This document shows, in pieces, positions 13,335 to 47,269 of a DNA stretch of 64,000 nucleotides (position 1 is the stretch's first letter; every line of letters begins with the position of its first letter). The notes beneath the pieces were generated by a model, which was given only the letters and a program-made list of their open reading frames with translations, was not told the DNA's origin and searched no databases. The DNA comes from an uncultured Lentisphaerota bacterium. GTDB taxonomy: Bacteria > Verrucomicrobiota > Kiritimatiellia > RFP12 > UBA1067. Location: positions 41 to 64,040 of the forward strand of contig ONVK01000005.1 of the NCBI GenBank assembly GCA_900321255.1, given 5' to 3'. The translations under genes were made by a program, and so were the position numbers.

Positions 13335-13350
13335 CTACTCACATGGGTAA
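13335..13350 (-). promoter_or_regulatory. Palindromic operator (degenerate copy) abutting a -35 element, upstream of 11533-13296
   Basis: The minus strand reads TTACCCATGTGAGTAG followed immediately by TTGCTTGACG. There is one mismatch to TACCCAnnTGGGTA. The -10 is less clear (AAAATA). Confidence 0.5.
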
Positions 13351-13366
13351 TTCGTTCAAACAAGGA

Positions 13367-14494
13367 TCAGAGGCCAAGCTCCGCGGCTTGCCTGGCGGCG
13401 ACGCGCTCCGACTCTACAGCGGCCGCGGCGCGGTCGATCTGAAGACCGAAGGCCGCGCCTTCCACGCTGCCGCGGTCACCGATCGGCTCGTCGCCGAAAT
13501 GCGTCGCCATGATGGAGAAGATGCGCGAGAAGTTCGCGTCGCAGGAGCTGAAGTGCGTATCCTTCTCGCTTATGCGGTTGGTGAGTACGACCTCCACCGC
13601 GTCAAGGCCCGGATCGATCAGGAAATAGCATCCCGTGGCGCCCGCGTGCCCGACGGCTTCCATCGTGTTGACGTCGGCGAAGTACTGCCCGAACCCAACG
13701 AACCCGGACTTCGCGAAGAAAGCCGGCGTGCGGTTGAATTCCGGCTTGAGGCAGCGGCGGAGAAGCGCGTCGACGCCCTGCGGCGTGAGAATGCCGTTCC
13801 TTCGCGTGCGGCGGATGTCGAGGAGATGGCGGCCGAACCTGACAAGGTCGGGCGCGGTAATCTGAAGCCCAGCCTGGCCCTGGTGCGCCGCGAAAGCCGA
13901 ATGCTCCATGCCGAGCGGACGGAAGATGCGGTCGCGAGCAAGATCAGCGACATCCGCCGCCCCCGTCACCTTCTCGCAAATCTCGGCGAGGATGTCGTAA
14001 CCCTGCGACATGTAGCGGAATCTCTCGTTAACCTCCGCTTCCTTGAACATGGTCTCGTAAAACTCGTCGTGACGCCCTGCGTCCACCGATTTCGCCACAT
14101 GGCCCGTCTTGTTGCGCCAGCCGGAGGTGTGGGTCATCAGGCTGATGATAGGCACGTCCGCGCCCTTGAACTCGGGAATGTACTTCTGCACATAGTCGAG
14201 AAGCGACACCTTCCCCTCTTCGGACAGCTGCATCAGCAGAGTCGCGGTGAAGACCTTCGTGATGGAGGCGACGTGAACAGGCGTGTTCTCGTCAAATCCC
14301 TTCCAGCCCTTCTCGGCGACGAAGCTGTAGCGCGTCTTCCCGTGCTGCTCGTAGGCGCAGCTCATGCACTTGAGCGCACCACCCTCGAATTCGCCCGTGA
14401 GAAAGGCGTCCACGCGCGCCTTCGCGCCGCCGTCGGCCGCGATTGCGGAGACGGAGAGGATTGCGGTCATGGCTGCGATTGCGTTGACTTTCAT
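13367..14494 (-). CDS. Serine hydrolase of the beta-lactamase/PBP4* (class C-like) family
   Basis: 375 aa with a signal peptide and the SxxK motif in VHVASITKVFTATLLMQL. Fold-typical YxN-like and HAGATG segments are also present. Confidence 0.75.
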   Translation of the reverse strand: MKVNAIAAMTAILSVSAIAADGGAKARVDAFLTGEFEGGALKCMSCAYEQHGKTRYSFVAEKGWKGFDENTPVHVASITKVFTATLLMQLSEEGKVSLLDYVQKYIPEFKGADVPIISLMTHTSGWRNKTGHVAKSVDAGRHDEFYETMFKEAEVNERFRYMSQGYDILAEICEKVTGAADVADLARDRIFRPLGMEHSAFAAHQGQAGLQITAPDLVRFGRHLLDIRRTRRNGILTPQGVDALLRRCLKPEFNRTPAFFAKSGFVGFGQYFADVNTMEAVGHAGATGCYFLIDPGLDAVEVVLTNRISEKDTHFSSCDANFSRIFSIMATHFGDEPIGDRGSVEGAAFGLQIDRAAAAVESERVAARQAAELGL

Positions 14495-14507
14495 GTCATT
14501 GTTCCTT

Positions 14508-16610
14508 TCATTTCAGATTCAATGTCGGCCGGCGCTCCCCGGCGAGATCCTTCTCGCGCAAAAGGCGCCATGCGTTCTCGCGAATGTCGTCCATCCCCTT
14601 GCGCAGGTGGCCGCAGGGAAGAGGGAACAGTCTGACGAGATGCGTCGCATGCCCCGGCACGGAGGCCTCGTACTTGTCGAGGAACACGCCGACGTCCTCC
14701 TGCCGCCACACGTCGCGGACGCGCCATTTGCACATCAGCCCGGCCGTCGCGAGGTCGAACGGCACGACCTGCTCGCGGTTCGACGTGTTGTAGAGGCCCG
14801 CGGCTATCGAGCCGTCGGCGAGCGGACGCGCCCAGATCTCCCACCCATCCCCCTCGGCAATGCATCCTGCGCCCTTCCCGAGCGGATCCTGGTCGATCTC
14901 GACCACTTCGTCGTTCGAAAGGAGCGAGAGCGTGAAGTCGTCGATCTTCGTGAGATCGCAGCCGATGAGCAGCGGCGCGGCGAGGAGCGACCAGAGCGAC
15001 ACGTGCGTGTACTGCTCGTTCGGCGCGAGGCGCGACGGCCCACCGTCGTTCCAGCATACGTTTCCGACGCAGAGCATGTCGGGGTCGTTCCACGCGCCGG
15101 GCTCGGTGTAGTAGAAGAGCTTCTTCTGCTTCTCGATTGCCGCGGAGACCGAGCTCCACGTGTCGAACACGTCGCCCGTCGTGCGCCAGCTCTGCGCACC
15201 GACGAGCCGCCCCCACGCGCTCACGTTCTCCATGCCGTACTGGCAGAGCGAGAAGTAGATGTCGCGCTCCTGGTGCGCGAGCGCACGCCCCATGACGAGA
15301 TACGGATACATCGCGCGGTCGAGCCCCTTGCCGAAAGCGACGTCGTCGTAGAAGCACCAGTCGTGCTTCAGGTAGTCGAAACCCCAGCCCGCGAACGTCT
15401 TCGCGTCGAACTCCTCGTGCTGCCAGCTTCCCGCGGCGCGCCCGCAGGTAAAGGGACCCGGGCTCGAGTAGATGCCGGCCTTGAGGCCCTTCGCGTGGAT
15501 GTGGTCCACCAGCCCCTTCATGTCGGGGAAGCGCCGGTTCGCGGCGATTCGCCCCTCGTCATCGCGCAGCGGCCCATCGAGGTCGGGATCCTCCTTCGCG
15601 CGCTCGGGGATGTTCTGCCAGAAGTCGTCGATGTTGACGTAGGCGTATCCGTGGTCGGCAAGCCCCGTCGCAACGAGCGCATCCGCCGCCGCGCGCACCT
15701 TCGCGTCCGACACGCTGCCGCCGAAGGCGTTCCAGCTGCTCCAGCCGAGCGCGGGCGTAAGGCCTATCTTCTCCCCGACTTTGATCGTCAGCGTCTTCTC
15801 GGCCTTGCCACAGGCGTTTTCCGCGGCGATCGTCACGGGATAGTCGCCGGGCTCTTTTATCGAGCCGGTGATGACGCGCGTATCGGGGTTGAAGAACAGC
15901 CCCGTCTGCGCCGCAGCGAAGTCGTCTCGGTCTACCGCCTCGACTTTCAACTTTGGACTTTTAACTTTCAATTTCATCGGCCGCCGGCCGGTGACGGGCA
16001 CGCGATAGAGGATCGGCTTGCCAGGACGCACGCCGTAGACGCACGGACCGTTCACGCGCGGCGCATCCGCCGCGGGCGGCGTGAGAATGCCGAGCTGGCG
16101 CGAGGTCTTCCGGACGTCGTTCGGGAGCCGCGCGCCGTCGCGGCACAGGACGCGCGCCTCGCCCCAGACCGCGAGAACGCCTTCGCCGGACCCTTCGACC
16201 GGATCGACCGCCAGCGTCATCGCCTGCACGCCCGTCACGTCGACATGCGCCTTCACCTCCTCCTTGTCGCCGAAGGCCGTCTGCGGCGAAACCCAGAGCT
16301 CACGGCCGTCGCCAAGGACGCGCAGCACGACGGCCCCCTTTGCGCCGGACTTGTCGACGCCGCACGAGGCCTCGAACGAAAGCGCCTCGCCGCCAAGCGG
16401 AATCTCCACTGCGAACGCCGCCGGCATCCGCATCCCGAAGAAGTGCTTGTGCGCGGACGTGGAGAACCGCTTCTCAAGCGCCGTGCAGGCGACTTCGACC
16501 GCGCCTTTCCCGCGCACGACCCTCGAGACGTCGAACTGCTCGCAGGGGATCTGCTGCCCGGCAAACGCCGTTCCCGCGGCGACAAGCGCCCATGCCAACA
16601 ACCTTTTCAT
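14508..16610 (-). CDS. GH27 alpha-galactosidase with an N-terminal NPCBM-like carbohydrate-binding module and an Ig-like linker
   Basis: LGWSSWNAFG...YVNIDDFWQ...GLKAGIYSSPG...YLKHDWC is the GH27 signature. The N-terminal segment (FEASCGVDKSG...VLRVLGDG) is NPCBM-like. ATG 16610 is preferred over the tracked GTG at 16619 because GGAG lies 9 nt upstream. Confidence 0.85.
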   Translation of the reverse strand: MKRLLAWALVAAGTAFAGQQIPCEQFDVSRVVRGKGAVEVACTALEKRFSTSAHKHFFGMRMPAAFAVEIPLGGEALSFEASCGVDKSGAKGAVVLRVLGDGRELWVSPQTAFGDKEEVKAHVDVTGVQAMTLAVDPVEGSGEGVLAVWGEARVLCRDGARLPNDVRKTSRQLGILTPPAADAPRVNGPCVYGVRPGKPILYRVPVTGRRPMKLKVKSPKLKVEAVDRDDFAAAQTGLFFNPDTRVITGSIKEPGDYPVTIAAENACGKAEKTLTIKVGEKIGLTPALGWSSWNAFGGSVSDAKVRAAADALVATGLADHGYAYVNIDDFWQNIPERAKEDPDLDGPLRDDEGRIAANRRFPDMKGLVDHIHAKGLKAGIYSSPGPFTCGRAAGSWQHEEFDAKTFAGWGFDYLKHDWCFYDDVAFGKGLDRAMYPYLVMGRALAHQERDIYFSLCQYGMENVSAWGRLVGAQSWRTTGDVFDTWSSVSAAIEKQKKLFYYTEPGAWNDPDMLCVGNVCWNDGGPSRLAPNEQYTHVSLWSLLAAPLLIGCDLTKIDDFTLSLLSNDEVVEIDQDPLGKGAGCIAEGDGWEIWARPLADGSIAAGLYNTSNREQVVPFDLATAGLMCKWRVRDVWRQEDVGVFLDKYEASVPGHATHLVRLFPLPCGHLRKGMDDIRENAWRLLREKDLAGERRPTLNLK

Positions 16611-16615
16611 GTCCG

Positions 16616-16864
16616 TCACTCCACGACTATCTGGTAGAAGCCACTCGGCTCGTTCTCCGCTTTCGGAATCTCGAGCGTCAGCACACCGTCCGCCGACGCG
16701 GGATTTTCGAAATACACGACGGGCGCGTCCTTGAGCCCTGCGAGGGTTACGGACTTCCTGTAGCCGTACCGATGACCCGCCGCGGCGTTGCCGATAGTGA
16801 TGGACACCTTGTCGGACGACACGGCGAACGGAACCTCAACCCCTTCGCCTCCGATCACCGGCGC
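16616..16864 (-). other. Shared C-terminal domain, copy 2 (ends GFYQIVVE)
   Basis: APVIGGEGVEVPFAVSSDKVSITIGNAAAGHRYGYRKSVTLAGLKDAPVVYFENPASADGVLTLEIPKAENEPSGFYQIVVE*. It is also similar at nucleotide level to 32630-32878. Confidence 0.8.
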
Positions 16865-19800
16865 GTCGGGCTCGGTTGCCGAGCCGCTTCCGCCGAGCCC
16901 CGTCAGCTTCAGCGCGCAGATGCGGCTAACGGTCGTTGCAGTCACCGTGAAGCCAAGAACAGTCTTGGTCGTAGTCGCGCCGCCGTCCGAGACGAGATAG
17001 ACGCCGTACGAGCCGTCGCTCAGCTGCGGACCGAGCGCGATTCCCTCGTACACGATCATGTTGTCTTTGTCCGTGCCATGGAAGTCGATCAGCGGCGACC
17101 CCTTCTCGACCGCGGTGAACTGCGCGTTAGTAAGCGCCGATACGCCGGAGACTTCCGTTGCCGCGGCAAGCGCACCTGTCGTGATGCGGTAGATGCGGCA
17201 GCGCCCCCAAGTCGCCGTGCTGACTTCGCGCTCGAGCGCGAGGAGCGATCCGTCGGGCAGCGCGCAGAGACCCGAGAGCCCGCTCTGCGCGGAGATCGTA
17301 TCTGCGCACGGATCGCATGCATACGCCCACTCTCCCGCCGCCGTCCATCCGTCCTGCGCCGTCGTGCGCGTAAAGCGTGTCAGGCGCACGACCGTGCTAA
17401 CCGTCGTATTTCCGCTTGACGATTCGCCGTCGCACGTGAGCGCCTGTTCGTTCGCGGTCCACATCGTGAGTCCATCAGGCGAGATCGTCAGGGACTCTAG
17501 CGACAGGTTGGAGCGCAGATGCTCGCGCTGGACTGCAGGGACGGGCGCGGTTCGTCCCGTAGCCGTTCCGTCAAGCGCAAACTCTGCAATCGACGGCGGC
17601 TCCCATTCGTCGCTGATCCACAGAGCGCCGGAGAGCGGATCGCGCGCAAGCCCCTCGGAGTTACGGCATCCCGCCGGCGTAACCGCCGCGCCGAGCGTCT
17701 GGCTCTCGATGGCGCCTGTCGCAGAATTGATGCCGATCGTCAGCGGATATATCTTCGCATATCCGTCGTTGTCGTCATGGTCCTGCAATACATAGAACAA
17801 TCCGCCCTCTCCGGAATACGTGATGCCGCCGCATCCGTTCGCGCCAAATGGATATTCCGCAATCTTCGCGAGATGCAGAGTGTTGGTGGTGTCCGGTCCT
17901 GGGACGATCGGCTCGACCGTCTCGCCGCCGCCCGATCCTCCGCCACCCGAACTCTCGCCAAGGTCGCGCACCTGCACGGCGGCGACGAATCGTCCGGCGC
18001 CGGATCCGCCCATCTTGAACGTGACGACGTGCGACGCGGCCTCTGCCGTAAACGAACCGTAGACCGTCGCGCCGGAGGATCCGTTCCCGTTCTGGATGCT
18101 GACGGACGGCAAATCACCGATCGTGATGTAGGCGTTGCCATACGAGTTGCGCGCCAGTATCTGCAGGAGATACGCGTGGCCCGCTGTCAATCCCGAAAGC
18201 GTCAAATGGATTTCTCCCATGCCGGTGTCCACGCCGAAGTTCCAGGCCGTGCCAAGGAGCGAGCTACTTCCCGCGTCCGCGCCCGCATTGACGAAGGCGG
18301 GACTGAATGAGATGTTCGCTGACGAAAGATCGGCCCCGGCCTGAAACGTAACATCACCCAAGGTGCGGTCGGTCGAAGCGCCGCGATAGGCATAGAGAAG
18401 CATGCCTTCGGTGCGGAGCATCGTTTCGTCAGACGCAGGCAATGTCGCAACGGTCCAGTCGACCATAGGCACGGGATCATCTCCTCCGCCCGACCCACCT
18501 CCGCTTGTCTGCTGCACGATCGGATAGTCGGCGGCGACGAACGTCTTGTTGCCTGCGAGCGTGAATACGACCGGGTTGCCGCTCACGATCTCGTAGCCCT
18601 CGGCTGCGGCAAAATTAACAGTTACCTGCGTATTCGAGACAATCGTGTAACTGCCCGCAACCGCCGCCACAGCGACGCCGTTCGTCGTAACGGAATCAAG
18701 GTCAAGCCCCGTCATTGCGGGAATCGTCAGCTCGCAGACCAGCGTCACAGGATCGGGATCGACAGGATCGTCGCCACCGCCGCCGCCCTCGCCAAGGTTT
18801 CGCACCTGTATGGCGTTGAGCACGCGGCGCCCACCAGAGCCGGAAAAAGCAATCTCGACGTTCGCAGTCGCGCCAGCGGCCTCGAACACGCCCGTGAATA
18901 TCGCACCGTACTTGGCGTCGTCGCCCTGCAGTCCGACCGGCCCCTTTCCGCCGATGGAGATATTCACTCCGGGCGACCAATTGTGGTGCGCCAGTATCTG
19001 GACCAAGTAGCGGTTCCCGGCCGTCAGCCCCTTGAGCGTCAGCGTTGCGCTGTTCTGGTTCTGGCTCCACACCCATGTGTTCGCGAGCATCTTCCCGAAG
19101 TCGCCCGAAGCGCCCTCAGAGCCCGAATTGCCGTCCGTTGCGTTGAACGCCGGCGAGATCGATGTGCCTGCGGTCTCGAGATCGGCGTCCGCCGCGAACT
19201 CGATTCCGTTGACCGTCACCGACGAGACGGCATAGGCGTAGAGGAGTGTCCCGTCCGTGCTGAAAAAGCTCCCGTTGGCCGTCGCGGCCGCGCCAGTCCA
19301 GCCGGTCTCGACGGGATCCCCGCCACTGCCGCCACCGCCGCCACCACTCGACGTAGCGATCGTGAAAGAGACCGACTTCGCCGCCGAGGTCTTGTTCTTG
19401 TCGGTAGTGATCGTGACGCCGCATGTGTATTCGCCGTCGGCGAGATTCTCAATGGAGAAGGTCGCCGTCGCGCCGGTCTGGTTCGAGAGCGCTGCGACGG
19501 GGGTCCCGCCATTTAGCGCATAGGAGACGGAATAGGAAGTGGCGTTAGTCCCGGCATCGTCCGTCCCCATCACGATGCCGGAGAGAAAAAGCGACACGCT
19601 GCTCCCGTTCGGAGTCGCGGAGACCGACCCGATCGACGGCTCGACGACCGTCGCCCCGCCTTCTCCGCCGCCACCCGATTCTCCGTCAGAAATCTCGCGG
19701 ACCTGAACGGCATTGAACGGCATCTTGCCGCTCCCGCCCTGATAGGTGATCGTCACGTCCTTCGTCGCGCCGACGGCCGTGAAGACGCCCGTGACGAGCG

Positions 19801-22800
19801 CGCCGTACTTTCCGCTCTCAGCATTGTCGCCGTGGATGTGCACGGGGTCACACCCGTTAGCGGAGACGATCGTCGTATTGTTAAAAAAGTTGTGCGCCAG
19901 GAACTGGACGAGGTACTTCTTCCCGCCTGCGAGATTCGAGAGCGTCAGCGTGACCGTGTGCGTGCCCGCACCGTCGCTGTCCCAGTACCAGCCGTTGCCG
20001 AGGGTGAGACCGAAGTTGCCGCCGACGCCTTCGTTCAAGAAGTCGCCGGTGAAGCCGTCAATGTTGGGCGTGAAGGAAATCTTCGGAGGATTATCCGAGG
20101 ACTGGAGGTTTATCGACCGCTCGAACGGGATGCCATTGATGGTCCCGCCGTTGCACACGTAGCCGTATACGAAGGTGCCCTCAGTGCTGAAGGAGTTTCC
20201 GGACGCGTCCATCAGTGTCGAAGTCCAGACGTCGGAGACGGCGGACGTGTTGACGTAGAAGACGACCGACTTCGTCTTCGTCCGGCCCTTGTCCGTCGTC
20301 ATCGTCACCTCGCAAGTGTGGTTGCCGTCCGCAAGGCCTTCAAGCGTGAACGAGCTGTCCGTCGTCTGGTCGGTTAGCGCCGTCGCGGCGGAGGATGCTC
20401 CGTCGAGCTTGTAGGTGACGGAATACTTTGTCGCTGGAACAGAATTGGCGTCCGTGCCCAAGACCACGCCAGCGAGCGAAATCGTCGCATTCGATCCGCT
20501 CGGCGCCGCGGTGAGCTCCGTGATGCGCGGATACTTCGGACGGTTGTTCATCGCGCGGTTCTGCGCGAACAGCCAAACGAACCGGTGGTTCGGCGCGCCC
20601 GCCGTGACGTCGTCCGTCCTTGAATAGCATGTCGTCCAGGCGTCGTGGCTGTTGTTCTCAAGCTTCTCGAAGATGACGTCCGACCCGAGCGCCCTGAGTG
20701 CCGTGACGATGCCCTCGGTCTGCTCGACGGGAATGGTCGGGTCGCCTCGGTTGTGGACGGCCAAGACAGGGACGTGCGCGATGTCGGCCGCACAGGCGGG
20801 ATCGCCGCCGCCGCAACACGGCATCGCCGCGGCGAAGAAGTCGGGACGGCGGCAGATCGCGTCCCATGTGCCATGCCCGCCCATGGAGAGCCCGGTGACG
20901 TAGATGCGGTTGGCGTCGACATCCGCCATCGCGGCGTAGGAGTCGAGAAGGTCGAACACCGCCTGGAGCGCCGAAGACGGCTTGTCCTGGAACGTGCACG
21001 TTGTCGAATTCATGGAGAACTCCGCCCACTTGACGTCGTTAGGACACTGCGGAACGAGAAGCCTGTAGCCGCTGGAAACGCCCGCACCGTCGAGATAGCT
21101 CTTGATGTTCGTCATCTCGTTGATCGTGAACGAATTGTCGACGCCGCACTGACCGTATCCGTGAAGGAACACGACGACGGGAACCTTGCCGCCGTTCGGA
21201 TCGGCCTTCGCCGCGACGCGGTAGGGGAGGTGAAGCTTGTTGGACGCGATGAATGTCTTCTTGACGAATTCGCCCGTCAGTTCTTCGCCGCCGCCACTTT
21301 CTCCGCCACCGGTCTCGCCACCACCACTTTCGCCGCCGCCACTTTCACCGCCGCCAGTCTCTCCGCCACCGCCTTCTCCTCCGCCCTCTCCGAGTTCGCG
21401 TAGCTGGATGGCCTTGACCTCGAACTTGCTGCTCGATCCGGAGAAGTTGACGACGACATTCTCCGTGGTGCCGGATGCCTCGAACACACGGGTGATAACG
21501 GCGCCGTACTTGTAGTCGTTGCTGTCGTTTGCGGTGACTGGGGCGATGTCGCCCGCAGAAACAGTTATGCCGCTGCTGTTGTGGTAGTGGCTCGCCACGA
21601 TCTGGACGAGATACTTGCGTCCGGACGTAAGCCCCTTGAGCTTGAATGTGACGTCCGTAGACGTTCCGGACATGTTCCACCACCAGAAGGCGTTGATGAT
21701 GTTGTTGTTGACGCCGAGGCCCCAGCCATCGCCGCCGGCCTTCGCAGGAGTTGTCTCGAGCGACGCATTCGAAGGATCGGAGCTCGACGCGAACGTCACC
21801 CCGCCGGCCGTGTCGCCGCCCTTCGCGATCGCGAAGACCTGCGTGCCGTCGCCGCGTATCGCGGAGCCGTCAGCTGTCATCGGCGCGACCTTCCAGCCGA
21901 CCGCGTCCGCCTGGGAATCCACCAGGAACTTTACGCGCTTCGGCGCGGAGACCATGCCATCGCCGGTCTTCACCATCACCGCGCAAGAGTGCCAGCCGTC
22001 GGCGAGATCCGCAAGCGAGAACGACGCCGTCGCGCCCGTCTGCGCCGTAAGCACCGTCGCCTCGGCGGCCGTGTCGAGCTTGGCGAGAACGGAGTAGGAC
22101 GACGCGGCGACACCGTTCGCGTCCGTGCCTTTCGTCACGCCGGAAATCGAGATCGTCGCCGACGTGCCGCTAACCTGCGCGGCAACGTCGCCAAGTGCGG
22201 GAAGCGTCACCGAAGAGGCGCCGGCCGCAGCCATGGCGGCGGAGATCGCAGGCGCCATGATCTCGCGGTAGCCCTTGGCCGAAAGGTGCAGGAACATGTC
22301 GGGATAGTCGCCGTCCTTCTCGAGGTACATCTCGCCCTTGAAGGTTCCGTCGGCGTTGAGGAACTGGCTGCGGACGTCGACGAGGATCACACGCTGTCCG
22401 TCCGCGTATGTCTTGATGATTTCGTTCGCCGTCTCGTTGTTGGCATACTGCGCCATGCCGGTCGCGTTATGCTGCGCGTTCGTGTAGCCGTAGGGGAGGA
22501 TCGGCATCAGGAGGACCTTCGACTCGGGATGCTTCGCGAGAACGAGATCCAGAACAGCCTTCACGCCCGCGGCGATGTCCGCGGGATCGTCCTTCGCCGG
22601 CTCGCGCTGGATGGTGTTGTTCGTGCCGATCAGGAGGTTGAAGAACTTCGTCGTGTAGCCGTCGAGGCATCCGCCCTCGAGACGCCACAGGAGGTTCTCG
22701 GTGAAATCGCCCGTGCGCCCGAGGTTGAACACCTTCGAGCCCAGTCCGTTCATGGAATCAGGATCGCTCGAGGACCACTTCTGCGTGATGGAGTCGCCGA

Positions 22801-23717: not shown

Positions 23718-23762
23718 ATTGTACCTATTCTATCGTCCAAGCTCAATTACCCAGCTGGGTAT
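23718..23762 (-). promoter_or_regulatory. Operator + promoter of giant gene A
   Basis: The minus strand reads TATACCCAGCTGGGTAA-TTGAGC-17 nt-TACAAT. TACCCAGCTGGGTA (23748-23761) is a perfect 14-bp palindrome. Confidence 0.65.
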
Positions 23763-26700: not shown

Positions 26701-26959
26701 CGTTCATCCACACTTCTAGCTCTCCGGAGACCGGCTTGCCTGTTTTGTTTTCAAGCGTCACGGGAAACAAACGAGGAGCGCCGGCATGAACCTCGGTGAC
26801 GCCCAAAGGCCAGAGGAACTTGTTCTTGCCGGAACGGTCTATCTTCTGCGGGAAAGACCCTATCTCGACCTTCACGCCGCAACGCTCATCCACCGGCGGC
26901 AGGTATGCAGCCGCCGTTAGCACAGTCGCTGCGACGAAGAGCGAAAGCAGAAATTTCAT
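23789..26959 (-). CDS. Large secreted hypothetical protein, possible glycoside hydrolase (family not recognised)
   Basis: Signal peptide MKFLLSLFVAATVLTAAA. The start at 26959 makes an ATGA overlap with the upstream stop. A central region rich in W/D/Y (FVKHDWQRWGYDY...CPHDNYADIYPD) is suggestive of a sugar-processing barrel only. Confidence 0.5.
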   Translation of the reverse strand: MKFLLSLFVAATVLTAAAYLPPVDERCGVKVEIGSFPQKIDRSGKNKFLWPLGVTEVHAGAPRLFPVTLENKTGKPVSGELEVWMNDDWDVTGPKGTISLAPGEKKGLSFTGAARPRALDALYPVHARFTPAGAKKDDAPHPVAVFMFKNPDAPRRVPKIAPSRLSPGVFRLDYGFARTTALEVGGEVVEVPESGSTDEWGALMSKDRMSADGIAKNGFKSHPPYKKGAGFIWSDFSLDLPGVTPLAFSCSNFLDPYRGKSSSDGVEYKVLVLEEGAEPKVVCSQVVNDVDLWRDMSGDLAPWAGKKVTLRLWTGPGPKMDTSYDSGGWGDVKLLIGPQPRTPGEADWAARCALALAAAKTARTSGTDPAAGRWRLDAGGIVYGAGIAYGERGLVDGALAFTDGDKSVVFRGFAARVETDDGSPAPEPIASIREEKGTLRVSWSIPGAKRGAGGFPRIVDLAVGPASVTPHRVYFGFGNVIEGPKRFSARASGFLLSTRHVGTDYLNGLSVVHAVDVVPDSVDCDGSRNIFSLHAHHDATFTFVPSSKGSFEAARRFRAVSGYKASPGHAALGSRMCLDQWGGDYEKAAADIALAAKYGLNDAIFVKHDWQRWGYDYRFPDIYPPRGDAAAFGAMRKACRDAGILFCPHDNYADIYPDCDGFSYDLVAFKLDGTPEQTWFNPGRHARAYRFAPHAFFPWCFRNARLLKQGYDPEAVFIDVFTAHGPFDYLDREGRFHTKNEVSANWGRGFQTYRMGFGRPDTVCVSEAGQDHLVGVADAGQSDHFGAAKVIGSGNFADSERTPWHDIVTHGYYVLFAGGLGNRYQEEDGWHTGGDAELHGYASDDYLSNAILGGRNPMCDGPFSRNAVKTYWLQHDACAELGRAEFLDLKYEGSIHRQHAFFSNGGEVWVNRQTNETWRLPNGKVLPPYGYYAHTRGTESGIVEKDGLRFAFAKSANGLFVDARKPPAGRAVSFGGVATDGALRFADWTIVPLPYSRAFSVEIDLAVFGAAGRAVAGVDAVDSQDGAKTPVWSQSGNTLKVECDAKSFAYRIRFGE

Positions 26960-29054: not shown

Positions 29055-29099
29055 ATTATAACAACATGCCAAATCTGGCTCAACTACCCACCTGGGTAG
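29055..29099 (-). promoter_or_regulatory. Operator + promoter of the PATR-protein operon
   Basis: The minus strand reads CTACCCAGGTGGGTAG-TTGAGC-17 nt-TATAAT. The palindrome lies at 29084-29099. Confidence 0.65.
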
Positions 29100-32512: not shown

Positions 32513-32539
32513 ATAACAGCTCTTTGATTGTTTGAGCAT

Positions 32540-32568
32540 ATTATATAGTTTTCAGGCCAGAACCTCAA
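32540..32568 (-). promoter_or_regulatory. Sigma70-like promoter for 29105-32512 (only a proximal half-operator present)
   Basis: The minus strand reads TTGAGG-17 nt-TATAAT. The 15 nt upstream (TGAGTTGATGGGGAA) keep only the promoter-proximal half-site. Confidence 0.45.
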
Positions 32569-32629
32569 TTCCCCATCAACTCAGCACTCGCTCGGCTCAC
32601 CTCTTCGCCCCACTTGTCTTAATCGGACA

Positions 32630-32878
32630 TTATTCCACTACGATCTGGTAGAAGCAGCTCGGCTCGTTCGCGGCCTTCGGAATCTCGAGCGTCAGGATAC
32701 CGTCTGCCGCAGCGGGATTCGCGAAGTACACGACCGTCGCATCCTTGAGGCCGGCGAGCGTCGTCGACTTCCTGTAGCCGTAGGTGTGCCCTGACGCGGC
32801 GTTGCTGATCGTGATCGACACCTTGTCGGATCCGACTACGATCGGACTTGCAACCCCTTCACCGCCGATCACTGGCGC
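32630..32878 (-). other. Shared C-terminal domain, copy 3 (ends CFYQIVVE)
   Basis: APVIGGEGVASPIVVGSDKVSITISNAASGHTYGYRKSTTLAGLKDATVVYFANPAAADGILTLEIPKAANEPSCFYQIVVE*. Confidence 0.8.
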
Positions 32879-40710: not shown

Positions 40711-40756
40711 ATTGTATAAATTCCTTCCCTTGTGCGACAACTACCCTACTGGGTAA
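40711..40756 (-). promoter_or_regulatory. Operator + promoter of giant gene B
   Basis: The minus strand reads TTTACCCAGTAGGGTAG-TTGTCG-18 nt-TACAAT. The palindrome has one mismatch. Confidence 0.6.
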
Positions 40757-40815: not shown

Positions 40816-42315
40816 TTACTTGCAGATAAAATAGAACCCACGCGAAGACACTGGCCCATCCGCCGGCAGCTCCCGCACCTGGATGGCGTTGATCGGGCGA
40901 TACCCGGTCGCGTTGCCCGAGTATGTTACCGCGACATCCTCCGTCGCGTCCGTGGCAGAGAAGGTACCGACGATGGACGCGCCATACTGATACGTCGTAT
41001 CGCTGCCGTTGGGACCGATATGCTGAGGCGGCGTCCCGTTTACGGAAATCATCATGCCGGCCTCTTCAGACCGCGAGCTGAAGGAAACGATCTGGACTAG
41101 ATAGTTATGCCCGCTGACCAGATTCTTGAGCCGAAGCGTCATCGTCGTTTCCGAAACGGAGGAAGACCAGTAGAGTGCACGTTTAAGCAGCCAGCCGTAG
41201 TTCGTCCAATCAACGTGCCCCATTCCTTCGATATGCCCCGAAAAAGAGGGGGTCACACTGATGTTCTCGGCCAAAGCATCGCTACTGGCGCCGCGGCGGA
41301 ACGAAACGTCGTGAACGGGTTGGTTTTGGTCGAGGGTCGCGTAGGCGTAGACAAGCGTCCCGTTCGTGAGGATCGAAGTCTCGTCCGGTCCCATCGGCGA
41401 AACGGTCCACGGCGCGACAGGCGCTTCACCGACACGGAAAACAAGATTTGTCGACGCGGTCTTGCCTGCATCTGTCTCAACCGTGACCGCGCACGTGTAT
41501 TCGCCGTCGGCGAGGTTCGCGATATTGAACGAGGCCGTCGCGCCGGTTTGGTCGTTGAGCGCAACGACCGCCGGCGCGTTGGTCAGCGAATAGGAGACGT
41601 CGTATGACGTCGCGGCCGCGCCCTGCGCATCCGTCCCCAGCACGATCCCGCCCAGCGAGACAGTCGCCGTGGCTTCTGTCACCGAAACGGATGCCGATTC
41701 GATCGACGGATCGACAACCGATGGTGCCGCCGCTCCGAGGTCGCGGACCTGGACGGCGGCGACATAGCGCGCGGCACCCGATCCGCCCATCTTGAACACG
41801 ACATCGTGCGAAGATCCGACCGCCTGGATGGTGCCGTAGACCGTTGCGCCGGACGATCCGTTTCCGCTTTGGATGTTGACGCGCGGCAGATCGCCGATCG
41901 TGATGTATGGATTGCCCCATGCGTTGCGGGCCAGAATCTGGACGAGATACTCATGGCCGCTCGTAAGCCCCGAGAGCGTCAACCGGATTTCGGCCATGCT
42001 TTGCGAAGCGCCGAAATTCCACGCCGTACCGAGAAGCGAGCTGCCGCCGGCGTTCGCGTTCGCTTCCGTGAAGGCCGGATCGAAGGCTATGTTCGCCCCC
42101 GAGAGGTCGGCACCGGCCTGAAACGTCACGTCGCCGAGAGTCATTGCCGACGATGCGCCGCGATAGGCGTAGAGAGGCGTCCCGGCCGTCTGGAGCATGG
42201 TTGCGTCAGATGCTGGCAATGTTTCGACTGTCCATGTGCCGTCCGTCGCGGCGGGCGCGGATGCGGCGAAGAAAGCCACGATGGCAGCAAAGGCAATGGA
42301 GAAAGGCATTTTCAT
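40816..42315 (-). CDS. Secreted CBM-Ig-CBM protein C (499 aa) made only of the cassette types found in giants A and B
   Basis: Signal peptide MKMPFSIAFAAIVAFFAASAPAA with AAGGAG SD. It has a Y-type malectin-like module, one Ig-like module (..LGTDAQGAAATSYDVSYSL..LADGEYTCAVTVETDAGKT) and a second CBM ending INAIQVRELP. No enzymatic domain and no FYQIVVE tail are present. Confidence 0.8.
   Translation of the reverse strand: MKMPFSIAFAAIVAFFAASAPAATDGTWTVETLPASDATMLQTAGTPLYAYRGASSAMTLGDVTFQAGADLSGANIAFDPAFTEANANAGGSSLLGTAWNFGASQSMAEIRLTLSGLTSGHEYLVQILARNAWGNPYITIGDLPRVNIQSGNGSSGATVYGTIQAVGSSHDVVFKMGGSGAARYVAAVQVRDLGAAAPSVVDPSIESASVSVTEATATVSLGGIVLGTDAQGAAATSYDVSYSLTNAPAVVALNDQTGATASFNIANLADGEYTCAVTVETDAGKTASTNLVFRVGEAPVAPWTVSPMGPDETSILTNGTLVYAYATLDQNQPVHDVSFRRGASSDALAENISVTPSFSGHIEGMGHVDWTNYGWLLKRALYWSSSVSETTMTLRLKNLVSGHNYLVQIVSFSSRSEEAGMMISVNGTPPQHIGPNGSDTTYQYGASIVGTFSATDATEDVAVTYSGNATGYRPINAIQVRELPADGPVSSRGFYFICK
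41733..42237 (-). repeat. Y-type cassette copy in gene C
   Basis: Similar at nucleotide and protein level to 17954-18460 and 36989-37495 (WTVETLPASD.TMLQTAGT.LYAYRGAS...LLGTAWNFG...GSSGATVYG...VAAVQVRDLG). Confidence 0.8.
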
Positions 42316-42336
42316 GGCAAAGCTCCTTTGACGAAA

Positions 42337-43833
42337 TCAGCGAAGACTGATCTTGAAACCAGCAATCGCATGGAACTCATAGCAGCCGATGTCTGGCAGC
42401 GCATCATCACTTACAAGCCCCCTTTTCAGGCAACGCTTGTGGCCGGCGAGATCGCTGGCCGAATTCATCCAGTCGGCCTTGACTCCGGCATCGATCATGA
42501 CAGACGAGCGTTTGAGCGTCCAGTCGCCGGCTGCAGCATCCTTGAACCCAGGGCCCTTCTGCGCCGCGAGCGCCGTGAGGCGCGAAGATTCGCCCGTCGC
42601 GTCAGCCGCGAGGACCGCCGCGACATCTGCGTTGTCAGTGCCGCCTTCTACGACAGTGGTGCCGATCTTGATAAGATCCTGGAGCGGAGTGGTGGGATGC
42701 CAGTAGATGCCAGGGACGCCCTTGAATTTATTGCCATAGGGCCATTCGGTCTTTTCGATGTTGCCCCAGAACACGCAGTTGGTGATGGCAAAGTTCAATG
42801 ACTGCACGTTGTCGCAGACAAGGCCGCCGACATTGCGGACAAACGTGCAGTTCACAATCGGAGGCATTGCGTCCATCCTGAACGGATACTTGTTGTCGAT
42901 GAAAAGACAGCTTGTGATTCTGCTGAAGCTCTTGTCGCCCGAAGCGTCCAGGCGATAGATGCTGGCAAGCGTCGATGTCACGGTCGACTCGTTGTTGGAT
43001 ATTACGCAACGGTCGAGGATGACTTTTCTGTGGAACAGAACGTCATCCTGATTGTGGCCGACGTTGTTCGCGATAAGGCAATCCACCAAACGCGAGCACC
43101 CCTGCTGCTCCCGCTGTTCCTTGGACCCGACAAGACCGCGCTTCGTCTGTGTGTGGTTGCGGAAAATGCAGTTCGTCACCGTAGAGTAGCTCGTGACGTC
43201 AATCGCCGCGTGATACTGATTCTTCGAAACGTCCGAGCAGTAGCAAGCGTCAAAGACCGAGCCCTCGACCCAAAGCGCGCCGAAGATAGCGCCGCCGCCG
43301 CCTTCCTCTCCAACTGTCGCAATCCCGCAACGAAGGAAGGTGCAGCCGCTGACGATGCCGTAGTTCTCCCGCGGTTCAAAGGACGTGTAGCTGTTCTGCC
43401 CGGCATAGATCGCCCCGCCGTACTTCGCCGAACAGTCGATGAAATCGCAGTCCTTGATCATCGCGGTCTGCGAAACGCTCGAGGAGCTGAAGCTGATCGC
43501 CCCGCCGTTGCCGGCATAATACGCGTTCCTGAACGTGATCCCCTCAACCTTGAAGTTGCTCCCGCTTACATAGAGGATGCGGAACTGCGAACCTCCATCG
43601 ATTATTGCGCTGGCCTTGCCGTTCGCGGAACGAAGCGTCACGTTCGCCGCCGAAACCGGAAGTTCCCCCCTGATGAGGCTGTACTCGCCTGCCGCAAGCG
43701 TGATAACATCTCCGGGATCCGCATCGTTAAGGGCTGCACGGAGATCATCAACCGTCGAGACGGTGGAACTGGCGGCAACGGCGGAAGCCGCAAACAGAGC
43801 GGCGGAAACAGCAGGAATGATGGATATTTTCAT
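42337..43833 (-). CDS. Secreted right-handed beta-helix (choice-of-anchor-Q-like) protein, paralog of the N-terminal part of 11533-13296
   Basis: 498 aa with a signal peptide. It has the VSTVDDLRAALNDADPGDVITLAAGEY entry motif, repeated NC/beta-helix rungs and DIGCYE near the C-terminus. No shared C-terminal domain is present. Confidence 0.7.
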   Translation of the reverse strand: MKISIIPAVSAALFAASAVAASSTVSTVDDLRAALNDADPGDVITLAAGEYSLIRGELPVSAANVTLRSANGKASAIIDGGSQFRILYVSGSNFKVEGITFRNAYYAGNGGAISFSSSSVSQTAMIKDCDFIDCSAKYGGAIYAGQNSYTSFEPRENYGIVSGCTFLRCGIATVGEEGGGGAIFGALWVEGSVFDACYCSDVSKNQYHAAIDVTSYSTVTNCIFRNHTQTKRGLVGSKEQREQQGCSRLVDCLIANNVGHNQDDVLFHRKVILDRCVISNNESTVTSTLASIYRLDASGDKSFSRITSCLFIDNKYPFRMDAMPPIVNCTFVRNVGGLVCDNVQSLNFAITNCVFWGNIEKTEWPYGNKFKGVPGIYWHPTTPLQDLIKIGTTVVEGGTDNADVAAVLAADATGESSRLTALAAQKGPGFKDAAAGDWTLKRSSVMIDAGVKADWMNSASDLAGHKRCLKRGLVSDDALPDIGCYEFHAIAGFKISLR

Positions 43834-43867
43834 GGCAGCCCTCCTATCGTTTCAAAAAGACGCCACA

Positions 43868-43911
43868 ATTGTATCCATTCCGGCAAGACAAGACAACTAC
43901 CCAGTTGGGTG
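43868..43911 (-). promoter_or_regulatory. Operator + promoter of the beta-helix / protein C operon
   Basis: The minus strand reads AACACCCAACTGGGTAG-TTGTCT-17 nt-TACAAT. The operator starts immediately after the stop codon of the upstream gene. Confidence 0.6.
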
Positions 43912-46900
43912 TTATTTTACAATGCGGTAGATGTGCCGCGAAAAGCCGTCGAAGGAATCGCCGAAGATGCCGTTCTTCGCCTGAAGCGAGCGGTTCTCGT
44001 ACATGACCTCGACCTTCGCGTCCGCCTGGATCTCCGGCGGAAGCCGAAAGCCGACGAGCTTGTTGGGATGCGGGTTGACGTTGGCGGTGTAGATGCGCCA
44101 CTCGTCGCCGTGCCTGCGCGTGAGGCAGCGGATGTAGTTCTCCGTCTCGCTCGAGATCGCGCCGCCGCAGAGCTCGTCCGAGCAGAGGAAGTCGACGTTG
44201 TCGAGAATCTCGCGGTTGACGTCCACAAGCGCGTCGTAGCAGCAGCGCGAAGTCGGCATGTTGACGAACCAGCTGAGTCCCGACGCGCCGGCCGCGATCG
44301 AGCCCCAGCACTGCGCAATCTGCTCCTTGTAGGACGGGATGCGCGGATGCAGCGAGTTCTCGCTCTCCATGAAGTACCAGCAGGGCTTGCCTGGCGCGAT
44401 GGAGCGGAGGACGTCGACCTTTGAGACGACCATGTCGAGCGTCGTGCCGTCGCAGGTGAGGTAGTAGTCGACCATCAGGATGTCCGTCGGCAGCCCCGCG
44501 AAGCGCCCCGAGATGCCCATCCAGCAGTTGTTCATCTGTACGGGGTTGTAGGGGAAGAGCTTCTTCGTGCGCTCCATGAACGCCCTGCACTCGTCCGCCT
44601 TGCGGTATTCCGGCTCGTCGAGGACAAGCCAGTTGATGACGTTCTCGCTGTCGAGCATCCTGTACATCTTCTCGCGGGACCAGTCCGTCGCCGAGTTGTC
44701 CTCCCACCTCCTGATCTCGCCGACGTCGTCGAGGGTCTGTCCCTCGCCCGTCCAGACCGTGAACTTAAGGCCCTTCTTCGCCGCGTAGGCGAGCGTCTTC
44801 TGGTTCATCTCGATGTCGCGGACGTTCAGGTTGTTCTGGAGGTTAAGGTACTTGAACCCCGCGTCGCATATGATGTCGACCTGCTTCGACGTGCCGTCCT
44901 CCTGCGGCGCGTTCTCGCGTCCGATGAGGCACGGCGAGCTCATGAACACCTTCTCCCCGTCGTGGACGAGCGTGCGCGACCACTGGTTAATCTGCGTCGC
45001 GCCCTTTTTGAACGGAAGCTTGCGCACCTCGCTTTTCCACTCCTTCCCGAGCGCCTTTACCGTGACGGCGTTTGTCCCGTTCGCCATCTTCGAAATGTCG
45101 ACCGACACCTCCTCGAAGCCTCCGTTCGCGTCCCACACGCGGAAGCCCGCCGTCTTCTCGTTCATGTAGAAGTCGTAGTGCCCGAGGACGAGCCCCTCCG
45201 CCGGGACCGTGTAGCCGCAGAGCGCGTTCTCCGCCGCGGTGTAGGGGGTCTTCCGCTCGGGCCTCGCGTGGGGAGTGGGCTTCCCGAGCGTGAAGTTCGC
45301 CGCGTCGCCGGATTTCGGCTTGTACTCAGTCGCGTATGTCTTCGCGCTGTCGAACCCTCCCTCCGGCGCGTCGACCATCTCGAGCTGGAGGTCGTCAAGC
45401 CAGATCGACGCCTCGGTCGTGCGCTGGTGGAGATCCGGCACGTCGAACCAGACGGGGCTGAAGATTCCTGGGGATGGCATGTTCGTCGTCGTTATCTCGT
45501 AGCGCGTCCACTCCGTCTTAAGGTCCACGATCTTCGCATCCTTCGACAGCTTCAGCTTGAACTTGACGCCGGGTTCGGACGCCTTGGCCCACACGGAGAG
45601 GACCGCGCTCCTGCCCTTCTGGGTCGGGGTGTTCCAGGTGAAGAAGTCGAAGCTGCGGACGAACGGCCCGATGTTGAGCCGGAGCGACTGCTTGCCGGAG
45701 TGCCGCTCCTTGCGGTCGACCATAAAGCACCTAAGGTACTTCTCCTTGTAGTCCTCGACAGACACCTTGTCCATCGCGCAGAAGTTGCGGTTGCAGTAGT
45801 GCGGCGGCACCCCGTCGCTGTCGTATTCGAAGCCGGAGTTCGCGATGAGGTTCGGACTGTCGTCGCCCTGCAGCGCGTATATCGTGACGCGGCGAACCTC
45901 GAAAGGACACTGGAAGTTGTCGATGACGAGCGGATTCGACCTCGCCACTCCGTCGAAGCCGACCTTCTTCTTCGGCGTCGGTGCGGTGAAGTAGTTTGCC
46001 TGGACGCCGTTGATGAGGAACGTGTAGCCCATCATCTTGTCGCCGATCCTGCGGCGTTCGAAGCGGACCGTCACCGGCTCGCCCTCCTTGAAGTTTGCGA
46101 TCCACGGATAGCAGCTGCGCGTTGCCTGGCCTTCCGCCGGCGCGTAGAGACTCACGCCGTATCCGTCGCTCCTGACGCCGTAGTTGCCGTAGTCGCAGCC
46201 CATAGACGCCCAGTGGTAGTCGCCGTCCTTCGGATCCTTGATCTTGCTCCACTCCGGATAGCACACGAAATCGGCCTCGACCGCGCACTCGTCGGGAAGC
46301 TCGCCCTTCCACTGGATGCCGTCGCCCGTGTTGCCGCTCGGCACGCGCACCGCGCCGTCCTTCACCTCGATCTCCTTCTGCGCGTGCCCGCGGAAGTCCC
46401 ACCGCTCCGCGAAGACCTTGGGGTTCGTGAAGTCGTCCTCGAAAACCGGCACCGAGAAGTCGATCCCCTCCTTCCCCTTGACCTTGGCCTTCGCCTTGTC
46501 CTTCTTCTCGGCCTTCGGGCCGGCCGTCAGCGGGACATCCGTGGCGCTCGCGTAGAACTTCTTCGCGACCTTCTCGTAGAGCCCCGCGACTCCGCCCTTC
46601 ACCACGGGCACGAACTCGGCGACCTGCTTGCCGTCCCTGTAGAACGACGCGCCGTAGAGCGACATGTCGTAGCAGGCATATGACTTGGGCGTCCCGTCCG
46701 CGCACGTCATGCCGAAGAACGAGACCGGCACCTTTCCGGTCGCCGTGCGCTCGCCTTCGAGCTTCATGCGGAAACTTCCCCACGAGACGTTCCGTCCGTC
46801 GTAGACGATAGCGATGCGCGAGCCGATTACTGCGTCGTTGACCTCCTGGAGTCCGCAGTGGATCCACCTGTCCCGGCTCTTGCGCCCGAGGCTCACGAAC

Positions 46901-47217
46901 GTCTGGTACGCCTGCGCCTCGTGTCCGCCGAGGGCCAGGTTGTAGAGATTGCGGAACCCTTCGGAATCCTCGGCGTCCTCCTGTCCGAAGAACGCCGTCG
47001 TCTGCTTCGCTTGGTCGAACTTTCCGCCGAATATCTGGTTGAACGGACCCTCGAACATCAGTTCGATCCTGAACGTGAGCCCGCTCTCCGGAAGCAAGTC
47101 GGTCTTGACGACGCTGCCGTGGGAGGATTTCACATACTCGACTTCGTAGTCGTACGGAGCCGCGGTCACGACGGTCATCGAAGCGGCGAACAGGGCAAAT
47201 GCTATTTGTGGTTTCAT
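43912..47217 (-). CDS. Secreted multidomain putative glycoside hydrolase, paralog of 8707-11472, with extra N-terminal lectin/DUF1080-like modules
   Basis: 1101 aa, starting MKPQIAFALFAASMTVVTAAP. NLIANSGFEYDSDGVPPHY...HSGKQSLRL is CBM4_9-like. The C-terminal catalytic-like domain with LDEPEY is collinear with 8707-11472. The tracked 1663-aa ORF extends artefactually, antisense through the kinase gene. Confidence 0.65.
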   Translation of the reverse strand: MKPQIAFALFAASMTVVTAAPYDYEVEYVKSSHGSVVKTDLLPESGLTFRIELMFEGPFNQIFGGKFDQAKQTTAFFGQEDAEDSEGFRNLYNLALGGHEAQAYQTFVSLGRKSRDRWIHCGLQEVNDAVIGSRIAIVYDGRNVSWGSFRMKLEGERTATGKVPVSFFGMTCADGTPKSYACYDMSLYGASFYRDGKQVAEFVPVVKGGVAGLYEKVAKKFYASATDVPLTAGPKAEKKDKAKAKVKGKEGIDFSVPVFEDDFTNPKVFAERWDFRGHAQKEIEVKDGAVRVPSGNTGDGIQWKGELPDECAVEADFVCYPEWSKIKDPKDGDYHWASMGCDYGNYGVRSDGYGVSLYAPAEGQATRSCYPWIANFKEGEPVTVRFERRRIGDKMMGYTFLINGVQANYFTAPTPKKKVGFDGVARSNPLVIDNFQCPFEVRRVTIYALQGDDSPNLIANSGFEYDSDGVPPHYCNRNFCAMDKVSVEDYKEKYLRCFMVDRKERHSGKQSLRLNIGPFVRSFDFFTWNTPTQKGRSAVLSVWAKASEPGVKFKLKLSKDAKIVDLKTEWTRYEITTTNMPSPGIFSPVWFDVPDLHQRTTEASIWLDDLQLEMVDAPEGGFDSAKTYATEYKPKSGDAANFTLGKPTPHARPERKTPYTAAENALCGYTVPAEGLVLGHYDFYMNEKTAGFRVWDANGGFEEVSVDISKMANGTNAVTVKALGKEWKSEVRKLPFKKGATQINQWSRTLVHDGEKVFMSSPCLIGRENAPQEDGTSKQVDIICDAGFKYLNLQNNLNVRDIEMNQKTLAYAAKKGLKFTVWTGEGQTLDDVGEIRRWEDNSATDWSREKMYRMLDSENVINWLVLDEPEYRKADECRAFMERTKKLFPYNPVQMNNCWMGISGRFAGLPTDILMVDYYLTCDGTTLDMVVSKVDVLRSIAPGKPCWYFMESENSLHPRIPSYKEQIAQCWGSIAAGASGLSWFVNMPTSRCCYDALVDVNREILDNVDFLCSDELCGGAISSETENYIRCLTRRHGDEWRIYTANVNPHPNKLVGFRLPPEIQADAKVEVMYENRSLQAKNGIFGDSFDGFSRHIYRIVK

Positions 47218-47224
47218 GTCTCTA

Positions 47225-47269
47225 ATTATAAATGAACGGTAACTTCCCGTCAAATACCCGACTGGGTAT
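47225..47269 (-). promoter_or_regulatory. Operator + promoter of 43912-47217, in the divergent region shared with the histidine kinase
   Basis: The minus strand reads CATACCCAGTCGGGTAT-TTGACG-17 nt-TATAAT. Only 7 nt separate the -10 from the ATG, so a leaderless transcript is predicted. Confidence 0.6.

Follow-up and report, generated by a model that had tools for sequence, protein, structure and literature searches.

A palindromic box upstream of the −35 hexamer as the probable operator of a NarL/FixJ-family response regulator in an uncultured Lentisphaerota bacterium

NarL-type systems and the locus under study

The response regulator NarL of E. coli prefers inverted heptamers of the TACYYMT type, for example TACCCCTAAAGGGGTA, which it binds as a dimer (PMC4549865). 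At promoters that NarL activates, its 7-2-7 sites lie upstream of the transcription start, from −40 to −49 at napF and from −38 to −47 at yeaR (PMC4549865). Here, we describe a comparable element in a 64,000-nucleotide stretch of DNA from an uncultured Lentisphaerota bacterium of the rumen or gut, which is placed in the Kiritimatiellia by GTDB (assembly GCA_900321255.1, contig ONVK01000005.1, positions 41 to 64,040 of the forward strand). This whole stretch is called the window below, and coordinates refer to it. Six promoters in the window carry the same 14-bp palindromic box, TACCCAnnTGGGTA, and a gene for a NarL/FixJ-family response regulator lies beside them. We propose that the box is probably the operator of this regulator.

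The regulator (210 amino acids; 49096-49728, plus strand) consists of a receiver domain (PF00072, at 7.8e-27) and a GerE/LuxR-type helix-turn-helix domain (PF00196, at 4.7e-15), and its recognition helix reads RDCIKAHLKTIF. It follows the gene of a 590-residue sensor histidine kinase (47327-49099, plus strand), whose stop codon overlaps the regulator start, and the two genes are operonic. The kinase contains a signal or transmembrane segment, an extracytoplasmic region, a transmembrane helix, and the HisKA_3 (PF07730) and HATPase_c (PF02518) domains. Both genes diverge from the sixth box promoter, and a kinase promoter, TTGCCG-17-TAAAAT, is found at 47289-47317. The pairing of kinase and regulator is kept in all orthologous loci. 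The extracytoplasmic region of the kinase (47327-48340, residues about 20-335) is predicted with good confidence to form three tandem OB folds (pLDDT 86), and the Foldseek matches of this region were the OB domains of RPA, HIN, CST and AsnRS. Such a triple-OB-fold sensor, if the model is right, would be an unusual architecture.

In several respects the locus resembles the NarL and NarP systems, where a regulator with a receiver and a LuxR-type helix-turn-helix domain also works with a HisKA_3 kinase. Its half-site in the box, TACCCA, agrees with the NarL heptamer at positions 1-6, and the inverted repeat is located just upstream of the −35 hexamer, as it is for NarL. However, the box is a palindrome of 14 bp (6-2-6 or 7-0-7) instead of the 16-bp 7-2-7 site, with half-site centres 2 bp closer, and its position 7 is mostly G (23 of 37 distinct sites) rather than T. 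The kinase sensor, with its predicted triple OB fold, is unlike those of NarX and NarQ; the targets are secreted hydrolase-type proteins and not respiratory genes; and the regulator is closer in sequence to VraR and LiaR than to NarL. Because of the 14-bp site, the unrelated sensor, the different targets and this sequence relationship, we do not regard the regulator as a NarL orthologue. Its recognition helix has a K-x-H-x-K pattern that presumably corresponds to KVHVK in NarL.

The nearest solved relatives of the regulator are VraR, LiaR, ChrA, NarL and DesR. The VraSR and LiaSR systems, which serve cell-envelope stress in Firmicutes, provide the best of them (E = 3e-42), with the same domain order and a HisKA_3 partner. 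However, the recognition helix there is KTHVSN and here KAHLKT, and the regulons differ. Neither VraS nor LiaS has a large extracytoplasmic domain, both being intramembrane-sensing kinases. A further similar arrangement is known for RcsB, also of the NarL/FixJ family, whose box at RcsA-independent promoters is a 14-bp inverted repeat of the TA...TA type immediately upstream of the −35 hexamer; half-site sequence, phosphorelay architecture and biology all differ from those of the system described here.

The locus is also similar to the substrate-sensing regulators of polysaccharide utilization loci in Bacteroidota, in that a dedicated sensor-regulator system adjoins clustered genes for secreted enzymes active on glycans. 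The regulons of relatives also hold GH43, a GH78-type rhamnosidase, a GH27-type alpha-galactosidase, a sugar transporter and a sugar kinase. No SusC/SusD-type family was found among the Pfam matches of the 13 block proteins, and since the SusC/D pair is absent, the locus is not a polysaccharide utilization locus of the Bacteroidota type. Moreover, it contains a classical two-protein system with a LuxR-type helix-turn-helix domain, unlike the hybrid AraC-type systems of Bacteroidota. In Pontiella agarivorans, genes for a HisKA_3 kinase and a regulator have been reported near glycoside hydrolase and sulfatase genes, with no operator defined (PMC10880615), and our literature search found no defined operator for Kiritimatiellota systems.

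The box, its fixed geometry and its exclusive linkage to one regulator lineage

We searched the window for TACCCANNTGGGTA with up to two mismatches and found exactly six matches, where 0.41 were expected and none of 100 shuffled sequences reached six. All six copies of the 14-bp palindrome are within one mismatch, two being perfect and four having a single mismatch. No match with exactly two mismatches to TACCCANNTGGGTA occurred in the window, and at three mismatches only three further matches appeared, which is within the chance level of 6.1; the six boxes are thus clear of the background. All of them are intergenic, on the minus strand and co-oriented with the downstream gene. The six-fold palindrome claimed by the first-pass annotation of this DNA was therefore borne out, its coordinates agreeing with the cores given below to plus or minus 1 nt. 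It had singled out the copy at 23748-23761 as perfect, which is true of the 14-bp palindrome, but the copy at 29085 is also perfect over the 12 specified bases.

On the minus strand, the order at all six sites is the box, 1 nt, a TTGnnn hexamer, 17 or 18 nt, a −10 hexamer and the ATG of a gene for a signal-peptide protein. Box 1 (TACCCATGTGAGTA, 13336-13349) is followed by the −35 hexamer TTGCTT (13334-13329), a weak −10 hexamer GAAAAT (13311-13306) and an ATG at 13296. Box 2 (TACCCAGCTGGGTA, 23748-23761), the perfect 14-bp palindrome, precedes TTGAGC (23746-23741), TACAAT (23723-23718) and an ATG at 23686, and box 3 (TACCCAGGTGGGTA, 29085-29098) precedes another TTGAGC (29083-29078), the TATAAT-containing TGTTATAAT ending at 29055, and an ATG at 29019. 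For box 4 (TACCCAGTAGGGTA, 40742-40755) the hexamers TTGTCG (40740-40735) and TACAAT (40716-40711) are separated by 18 nt, and the ATG is at 40681. Box 5 (CACCCAACTGGGTA, 43898-43911) abuts the stop codon of the upstream gene and is followed by TTGTCT (43896-43891), TACAAT (43873-43868) and an ATG at 43833. Box 6 (TACCCAGTCGGGTA, 47255-47268) is found between the divergent genes for the kinase and for a 1101-residue protein, with TTGACG at 47253-47248, TATAAT at 47230-47225 and the ATG at 47217.

An independent scan of the window with the sigma-70 consensus recovered five of the six box promoters, together with the kinase promoter and an internal promoter at 32568-32540. The composite layout with a TA(T/C)AAT hexamer, first described for all six sites, holds for sites 2-6; at site 1 the hexamer is weak (GAAAAT/AAAATA) and fails the consensus scan. 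The internal promoter, said to retain the proximal half-site only, does keep five of six proximal bases and one of six distal ones. A non-consensus −35 hexamer is present in five of the six box promoters, a TGn extended −10 is absent from five, and four promoters show both features. Promoter 6 (TTGACG-17-TATAAT) is near consensus in both hexamers, and promoter 3 has the extended −10 (TGTTATAAT).

The sequence TGnTAnAAT occurs six times in the window (1.1 expected). Five of these copies are on the minus strand outside the block of box-controlled genes: one before secY, one before a gene of the RNA_pol_Rpb6 family, and three on the housekeeping flank at 57453, 61957 and 62191. The tRNA promoter reads TTGACG...TGGTAAACT. 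The contrast drawn earlier, by which housekeeping promoters use TGn and lack the palindrome, thus largely holds, but as a tendency and not a rule, because promoter 3 also carries the TGn extension.

Alignments of orthologous promoters showed divergence or indels upstream up to the first T of the box, with the half-sites, the TTG and the −10 hexamer invariant; the two central bases of the box change freely. In a set of 37 distinct sites, the information content is 1.5-2 bits at positions 1-6 and 10-14 and below 0.5 bit in the flanks. For 40 distinct box-promoter composites of this lineage, the gap between box and −35 hexamer is always 1 nt, and the spacer is 17 nt (22 composites), 18 nt (16) or 19 nt (2).

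Then, 185,579 species genomes were scanned with the strict pattern ACCCANNNGGGTANTTG-N20/21-TANAAT, to which all window sites but one of the six conform. There were 51 matches, where chance alone would give about 35 (18 fixed bases and two spacings on both strands of 596 Gb), and 24 of them were in Kiritimatiellae-related bins. A whole-genome check on the motif had been proposed with the first-pass annotation; in the nearest form of it that was run, all 17 strict matches in six close relatives (80-97% DNA identity; incomplete bins) mapped to the orthologous block. Five more strict matches belong to a more distant group with regulators 57-66% identical. In this group the box adjoins the orthologous kinase-regulator pair, within the divergent region, and precedes a gene for a secreted protein of about 940 residues. 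These proteins were considered as conserved targets and rejected, being homologous to one another and to no window protein.

We also examined 80 loci around relatives of the regulator (1.23 Mb). Boxes with at most one mismatch were present only where the regulator was at least 57% identical, and none was found beside the many Kiritimatiellae relatives of 40-54% identity among these loci. An independent test was provided by four orthologous kinase loci from metagenomes, with sensors 56-64% and regulators 81-85% identical and the recognition helix unchanged. They contain eight boxes with at most one mismatch in 82.5 kb, where about 0.2 would be expected. Two or three box-promoter composites lie within 10 kb in each locus, all of them intergenic, of the same geometry and upstream of a gene. 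Their targets include a CotH giant protein, GDSL esterases, an orthologue of the 1101-residue protein, a PL9-like beta-helix protein with a GH27 alpha-galactosidase, a metallophosphatase with a GH78-type rhamnosidase, and an operon of a beta-lactamase-fold protein, GH43, a sugar transporter and a PfkB kinase.

The box thus co-occurs with kinase-regulator orthologues (regulators 57-100% identical) in at least 10 lineages while the targets change. It is a conserved motif of fixed geometry, linked exclusively to the lineage of this kinase-regulator pair. The earlier suggestion of one dedicated regulator, possibly the adjacent response regulator, is supported by these data, as the box travels with the orthologues of the pair and is absent at relatives of 40-54% identity.

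Several paralogous pairs of the same class (40-47% identical) have a palindrome of different sequence where the box would stand, as judged from the −10 hexamer. TACCCGT-N6-ACGGGT(G/A) is found with the recognition helix SVEEHVN, CCCTAC-N4-GTAGGG with SVKEHIS, TACC-N6-GGTA with GVKAHLT, and GACCCAnnTGGGTC with SVKRRLS. The operator type therefore tracks the recognition helix, as expected if the regulator reads the box. At four loci (L066, L070, L071 and L073), the palindrome TACCCGT-N6-ACGGGT(G/A), 20 bp long, is situated between two divergent promoters, most of which have an extended −10 (TTTTGGTAAAAT type). An ATG follows close behind each, one for a 403-residue kinase and the other for a gene on the opposite strand.

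An element common to several phyla was considered and rejected, since the approximately 27 strict matches in Chloroflexota, Firmicutes, Bacteroidota and others are about the chance number (about 35). Among the strict matches outside Kiritimatiellae, only one adjoins a NarL-type regulator. In this Ignavibacteriaceae bin (L020), a perfect TACCCATTTGGGTA-G-TTG...TATAAT composite at 6079-6092 is directly upstream of the regulator gene, whose helix TVRAHIKNIY resembles the CIKAHLKTIF of the window. Because a chance match at such a regulator is unlikely, the helix-box pair may exist outside Kiritimatiellae, and the RAHIK helix downstream of the same box hints that the pair predates the phylum. Three copies of AAATTAACCCATTTGGGTACTTGCA...TATAAT were seen in one Chloroflexia bin (L005, L016 and L021), and one orthologous promoter matches the strict pattern in three Anaerolinea bins (L003, L008 and L015). 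No NarL-type regulator is present within the loci fetched for the Chloroflexia and Anaerolinea matches, and these Chloroflexota clusters were not taken as the same system.

Proposed mechanism and alternative explanations

We consider it probable that TACCCAnnTGGGTA is the operator of the adjacent regulator (49096-49728), paired with the HisKA_3 kinase (47327-49099). With somewhat less confidence, we favour a role of the regulator as a phospho-dependent activator of the class II type at the boxes. Binding, activation over repression, the transcription start sites and the signal are what we infer from the sequences, as follows. The kinase would sense an extracytoplasmic cue through its triple-OB-fold domain, and the content of the regulon suggests that this cue is probably a product of plant-glycan breakdown. 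The kinase would phosphorylate the regulator, and a regulator dimer would bind the box 1 bp upstream of the −35 hexamer. If transcription starts about 7 nt after the predicted −10 hexamer, the box would reach from about −50 to −37 and be centred near −43.5 or −44.5. In class II-type promoters the activator site adjoins or overlaps the −35 hexamer, and its centre is at about −41.5 to −44.5. The bound dimer would help RNA polymerase to start at six promoters that have a partial −35 hexamer (TTGnnn) and mostly no extended −10. As a result, 13 genes for secreted proteins of the esterase, CotH, beta-helix and alpha-galactosidase types would be switched on together.

The site had been described at the outset as activator-like in position, and by analogy this agrees with our estimate, the predicted −37 to −50 matching the NarL 7-2-7 sites at napF and yeaR. 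Activation is favoured because the NarL sites at these two activated promoters match in position and because four of the window promoters have a poor −35 hexamer and no extended −10. In one orthologous locus (L056, 7920-7990) the palindrome is flanked on both sides by the arrangement box-1nt-hexamer-17/18-TATAAT, so that the divergent target and kinase promoters share one box, a hint of positive autoregulation. In the window itself, the −35 hexamer of the kinase promoter is 20 nt from the box, which would put the box centre near −62.5.

Some points weigh against this interpretation. Promoters 6 (TTGACG, TATAAT) and 3 (extended −10) might fire without an activator, and all positions relative to +1 depend on predicted −10 hexamers. 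Weaker or distant members of the regulon could be missed with a strict pattern and incomplete genome bins. Adjacency of box and regulator is not universal, because one relative, JBJEWA, has its box promoter (L042) on another contig than its regulator (L057, 54% identical). Furthermore, terminator-like matches in the window are at or below the shuffle level; with no convincing intrinsic terminator between them, the six transcription units are delimited by their promoters only.

The main rival is that the same protein represses from the same box: bound at −37 to −50, its dimer would obstruct the alpha-CTD or sigma region 4 until the signal lifts the repression. It takes this place because promoter 6, with TTGACG-17-TATAAT, and promoter 3, with the extended −10, look strong in themselves, and NarL-family regulators can indeed repress, as at frdA (PMC4549865). 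However, the site of NarL repression at frdA is near the start (−4/+6) and not upstream of the −35 hexamer (PMC4549865). The box overlaps the −35 hexamer, the −10 hexamer or +1 in none of the 40 composites, and four of the six window promoters combine a poor −35 hexamer with the lack of an extended −10, as activator-dependent promoters do. On this evidence, repression appears unlikely. We give still less weight to the idea that another transcription factor, encoded elsewhere, binds the box while the neighbouring two-component system is a bystander. It is true that the binder is assigned from genome comparison, and that the box promoter and the nearest regulator relative of JBJEWA are on separate contigs. 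But a bystander does not fit well with a box that accompanies the kinase-regulator orthologues in at least 10 lineages despite changing targets, or with the absence of the box beside paralogues, whose own palindromes match different recognition helices; the resemblance of the half-site to the NarL heptamer also speaks against it.

The six copies might also derive from a promoter cassette of no operator function, spread by gene duplication in the block or as a small mobile repeat, and some block genes are indeed paralogous (the giant GDSL pair, the beta-helix pair and a common C-terminal module). This is very improbable in our view, as the copies are dissimilar outside the box, the TTG and the −10 hexamer, with flanks and spacers at about 0-0.4 bits, and the box is kept before unrelated genes in other genera. 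Lastly, the palindrome might act at the RNA level, its hairpin terminating the transcript from upstream or making it more stable. Every box is close behind the stop codon of the preceding gene, which box 5 abuts, and one copy was flagged as terminator-like, although on the plus (non-coding) strand. A hairpin of this kind is the least credible of the explanations: the stem would have at most 5-6 bp with a loop of 2-4 nt and no U tract on the coding strand, the mismatches are uncompensated (TACCCA/TGAGTA, CACCCA/TGGGTA), and terminator-like matches do not exceed the shuffle level. Binding of the box by the adjacent regulator, probably as an activator, is thus the explanation that we prefer.

Genes of the block and meaning of the regulon

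The six box promoters head a 38-kb block of 13 contiguous, gap-free and co-oriented genes on the minus strand (8707-47217). Unit 1 (8707-13296) encodes a right-handed beta-helix protein of 587 residues (11533-13296) and a 921-residue protein of unknown family (8707-11472). Unit 2 (13367-23686) begins with a protein of 2356 residues (16616-23686), which has two GDSL domains, a DLH-type hydrolase domain and a phytase-like domain; it also contains a 703-residue protein with NPCBM and a GH27-type alpha-galactosidase (14508-16619) and a 375-residue beta-lactamase-fold protein (13367-14494). The products of unit 3 (23789-29019) are a 687-residue protein with a PATR repeat (26956-29019) and a 1064-residue protein of unknown family (23789-26983). 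Unit 4 (29105-40681) comprises a 2683-residue protein with GDSL, Ig/fn3, CotH and LTD domains (32630-40681) and a 1144-residue protein with a weak GH36-like alpha-galactosidase match (29105-32539), which has its own half-site promoter at 32568-32540. Unit 5 (40816-43833) encodes a 498-residue beta-helix protein, Pel9A-like or chondroitinase B-like (42337-43833), and a 499-residue protein with fn3, PKD and Ig domains (40816-42315). Unit 6 (43912-47217) consists of the gene for the secreted 1101-residue protein. No Pfam or PDB sequence relatives were found for the 1101-, 1064- and 921-residue proteins. Beyond the kinase-regulator pair are secY, smpB and other housekeeping genes.

The secreted proteins of the block most likely degrade or de-esterify glycans. 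The label of a secreted-glycan locus, which had been given to the block, is therefore a misnomer, because the genes encode secreted proteins that likely act on glycans and not the synthesis or secretion of a glycan. The content of its targets suggests that the regulon serves a plant glycan with branches and ester groups, for which pectin or arabinogalactan would be examples. The two giant GDSL proteins are paralogous, and so are the two beta-helix proteins. A C-terminal module of about 45 residues (...TL.GLKDA.VV..ENP....G.L.L.I.K..NEP..FYQIVVE*) is common to the products of 11533-13296, 16616-23686 and 32630-40681 (minus strand), and other block proteins have similar ...Y(R/Q)I... strands at the C-terminus. 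The shared module had no Pfam match; it may serve as a signal for sorting or anchoring.

The distance from the −10 hexamer to the ATG is bimodal over the 40 box promoters, being 6-9 nt or 27-35 nt, and the mRNAs of the shorter class are probably leaderless. In the window, the ATG is only 7 nt past the −10 hexamer at promoter 6, so its transcript is probably leaderless; at promoter 1, with 9 nt after the predicted hexamer, the transcript would have little or no leader. Besides these two (47217 and 13296), the sites noted for this distance are L049 5334, L053 8677, L054 14669, L135 and L137, and the kinase genes of several orthologues also begin 6-9 nt after a −10 hexamer.

A nearly identical promoter-like sequence (TTGACGG...TTTGGTAAACTACGCGCC) was observed twice on the minus strand, at about 4745 upstream of tRNA-Met/Thr genes and at 8682-8710 just past the block. 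The latter copy precedes a leader of about 100 nt before the open reading frame at 7553-8575. No Rfam family matches this leader, and three tRNAs were the only known RNA families across the window.

Between species, the regulon varies in its gene order and in how many promoters it has. Extra box promoters, which are not in the window, occur in close relatives (L025 6713 / L130 3187; L039 7607; L054 14669 and 16991). One box promoter found in relatives only is located between two genes for proteins of about 498 residues, where the gap in the window is 22 bp (42315-42337).

Kiritimatiellae are abundant and mostly uncultured degraders of complex glycans in the rumen, the gut and anoxic sediments. 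The regulon described here is of an ordinary kind, belonging by domain content to the NarL/FixJ family, and reveals no new regulatory principle. At this locus the operator is sharply defined, a candidate regulator is given and the regulon is small and complete, and one regulator of 210 residues with a 14-bp site makes a simple experimental system. Expression units of very large, unannotatable secreted proteins become groupable by function from sequence alone. Because six to eight box promoters have been gained and lost among species, the locus also suggests how substrate-specific enzyme islands get wired and rewired between close relatives.

More tentatively, and as a conjecture to which we would not quite give even odds, Kiritimatiellota may have expanded such HisKA_3/NarL-type pairs, each with a private TACCC-type palindrome one base from the −35 hexamer and each wiring a fast-changing island of secreted glycan-active proteins, with a code that can be read from the recognition helix. 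If this is true, the helix would tell which half-site and spacing to expect, KAHLK going with a 6-2-6 site, for instance, and VEEHVN with one of 7-6-7. These pairs would then be the counterpart, in the PVC superphylum, of the regulators of polysaccharide utilization loci in Bacteroidota, and their targets would be predictable from the metagenomes of uncultured lineages.

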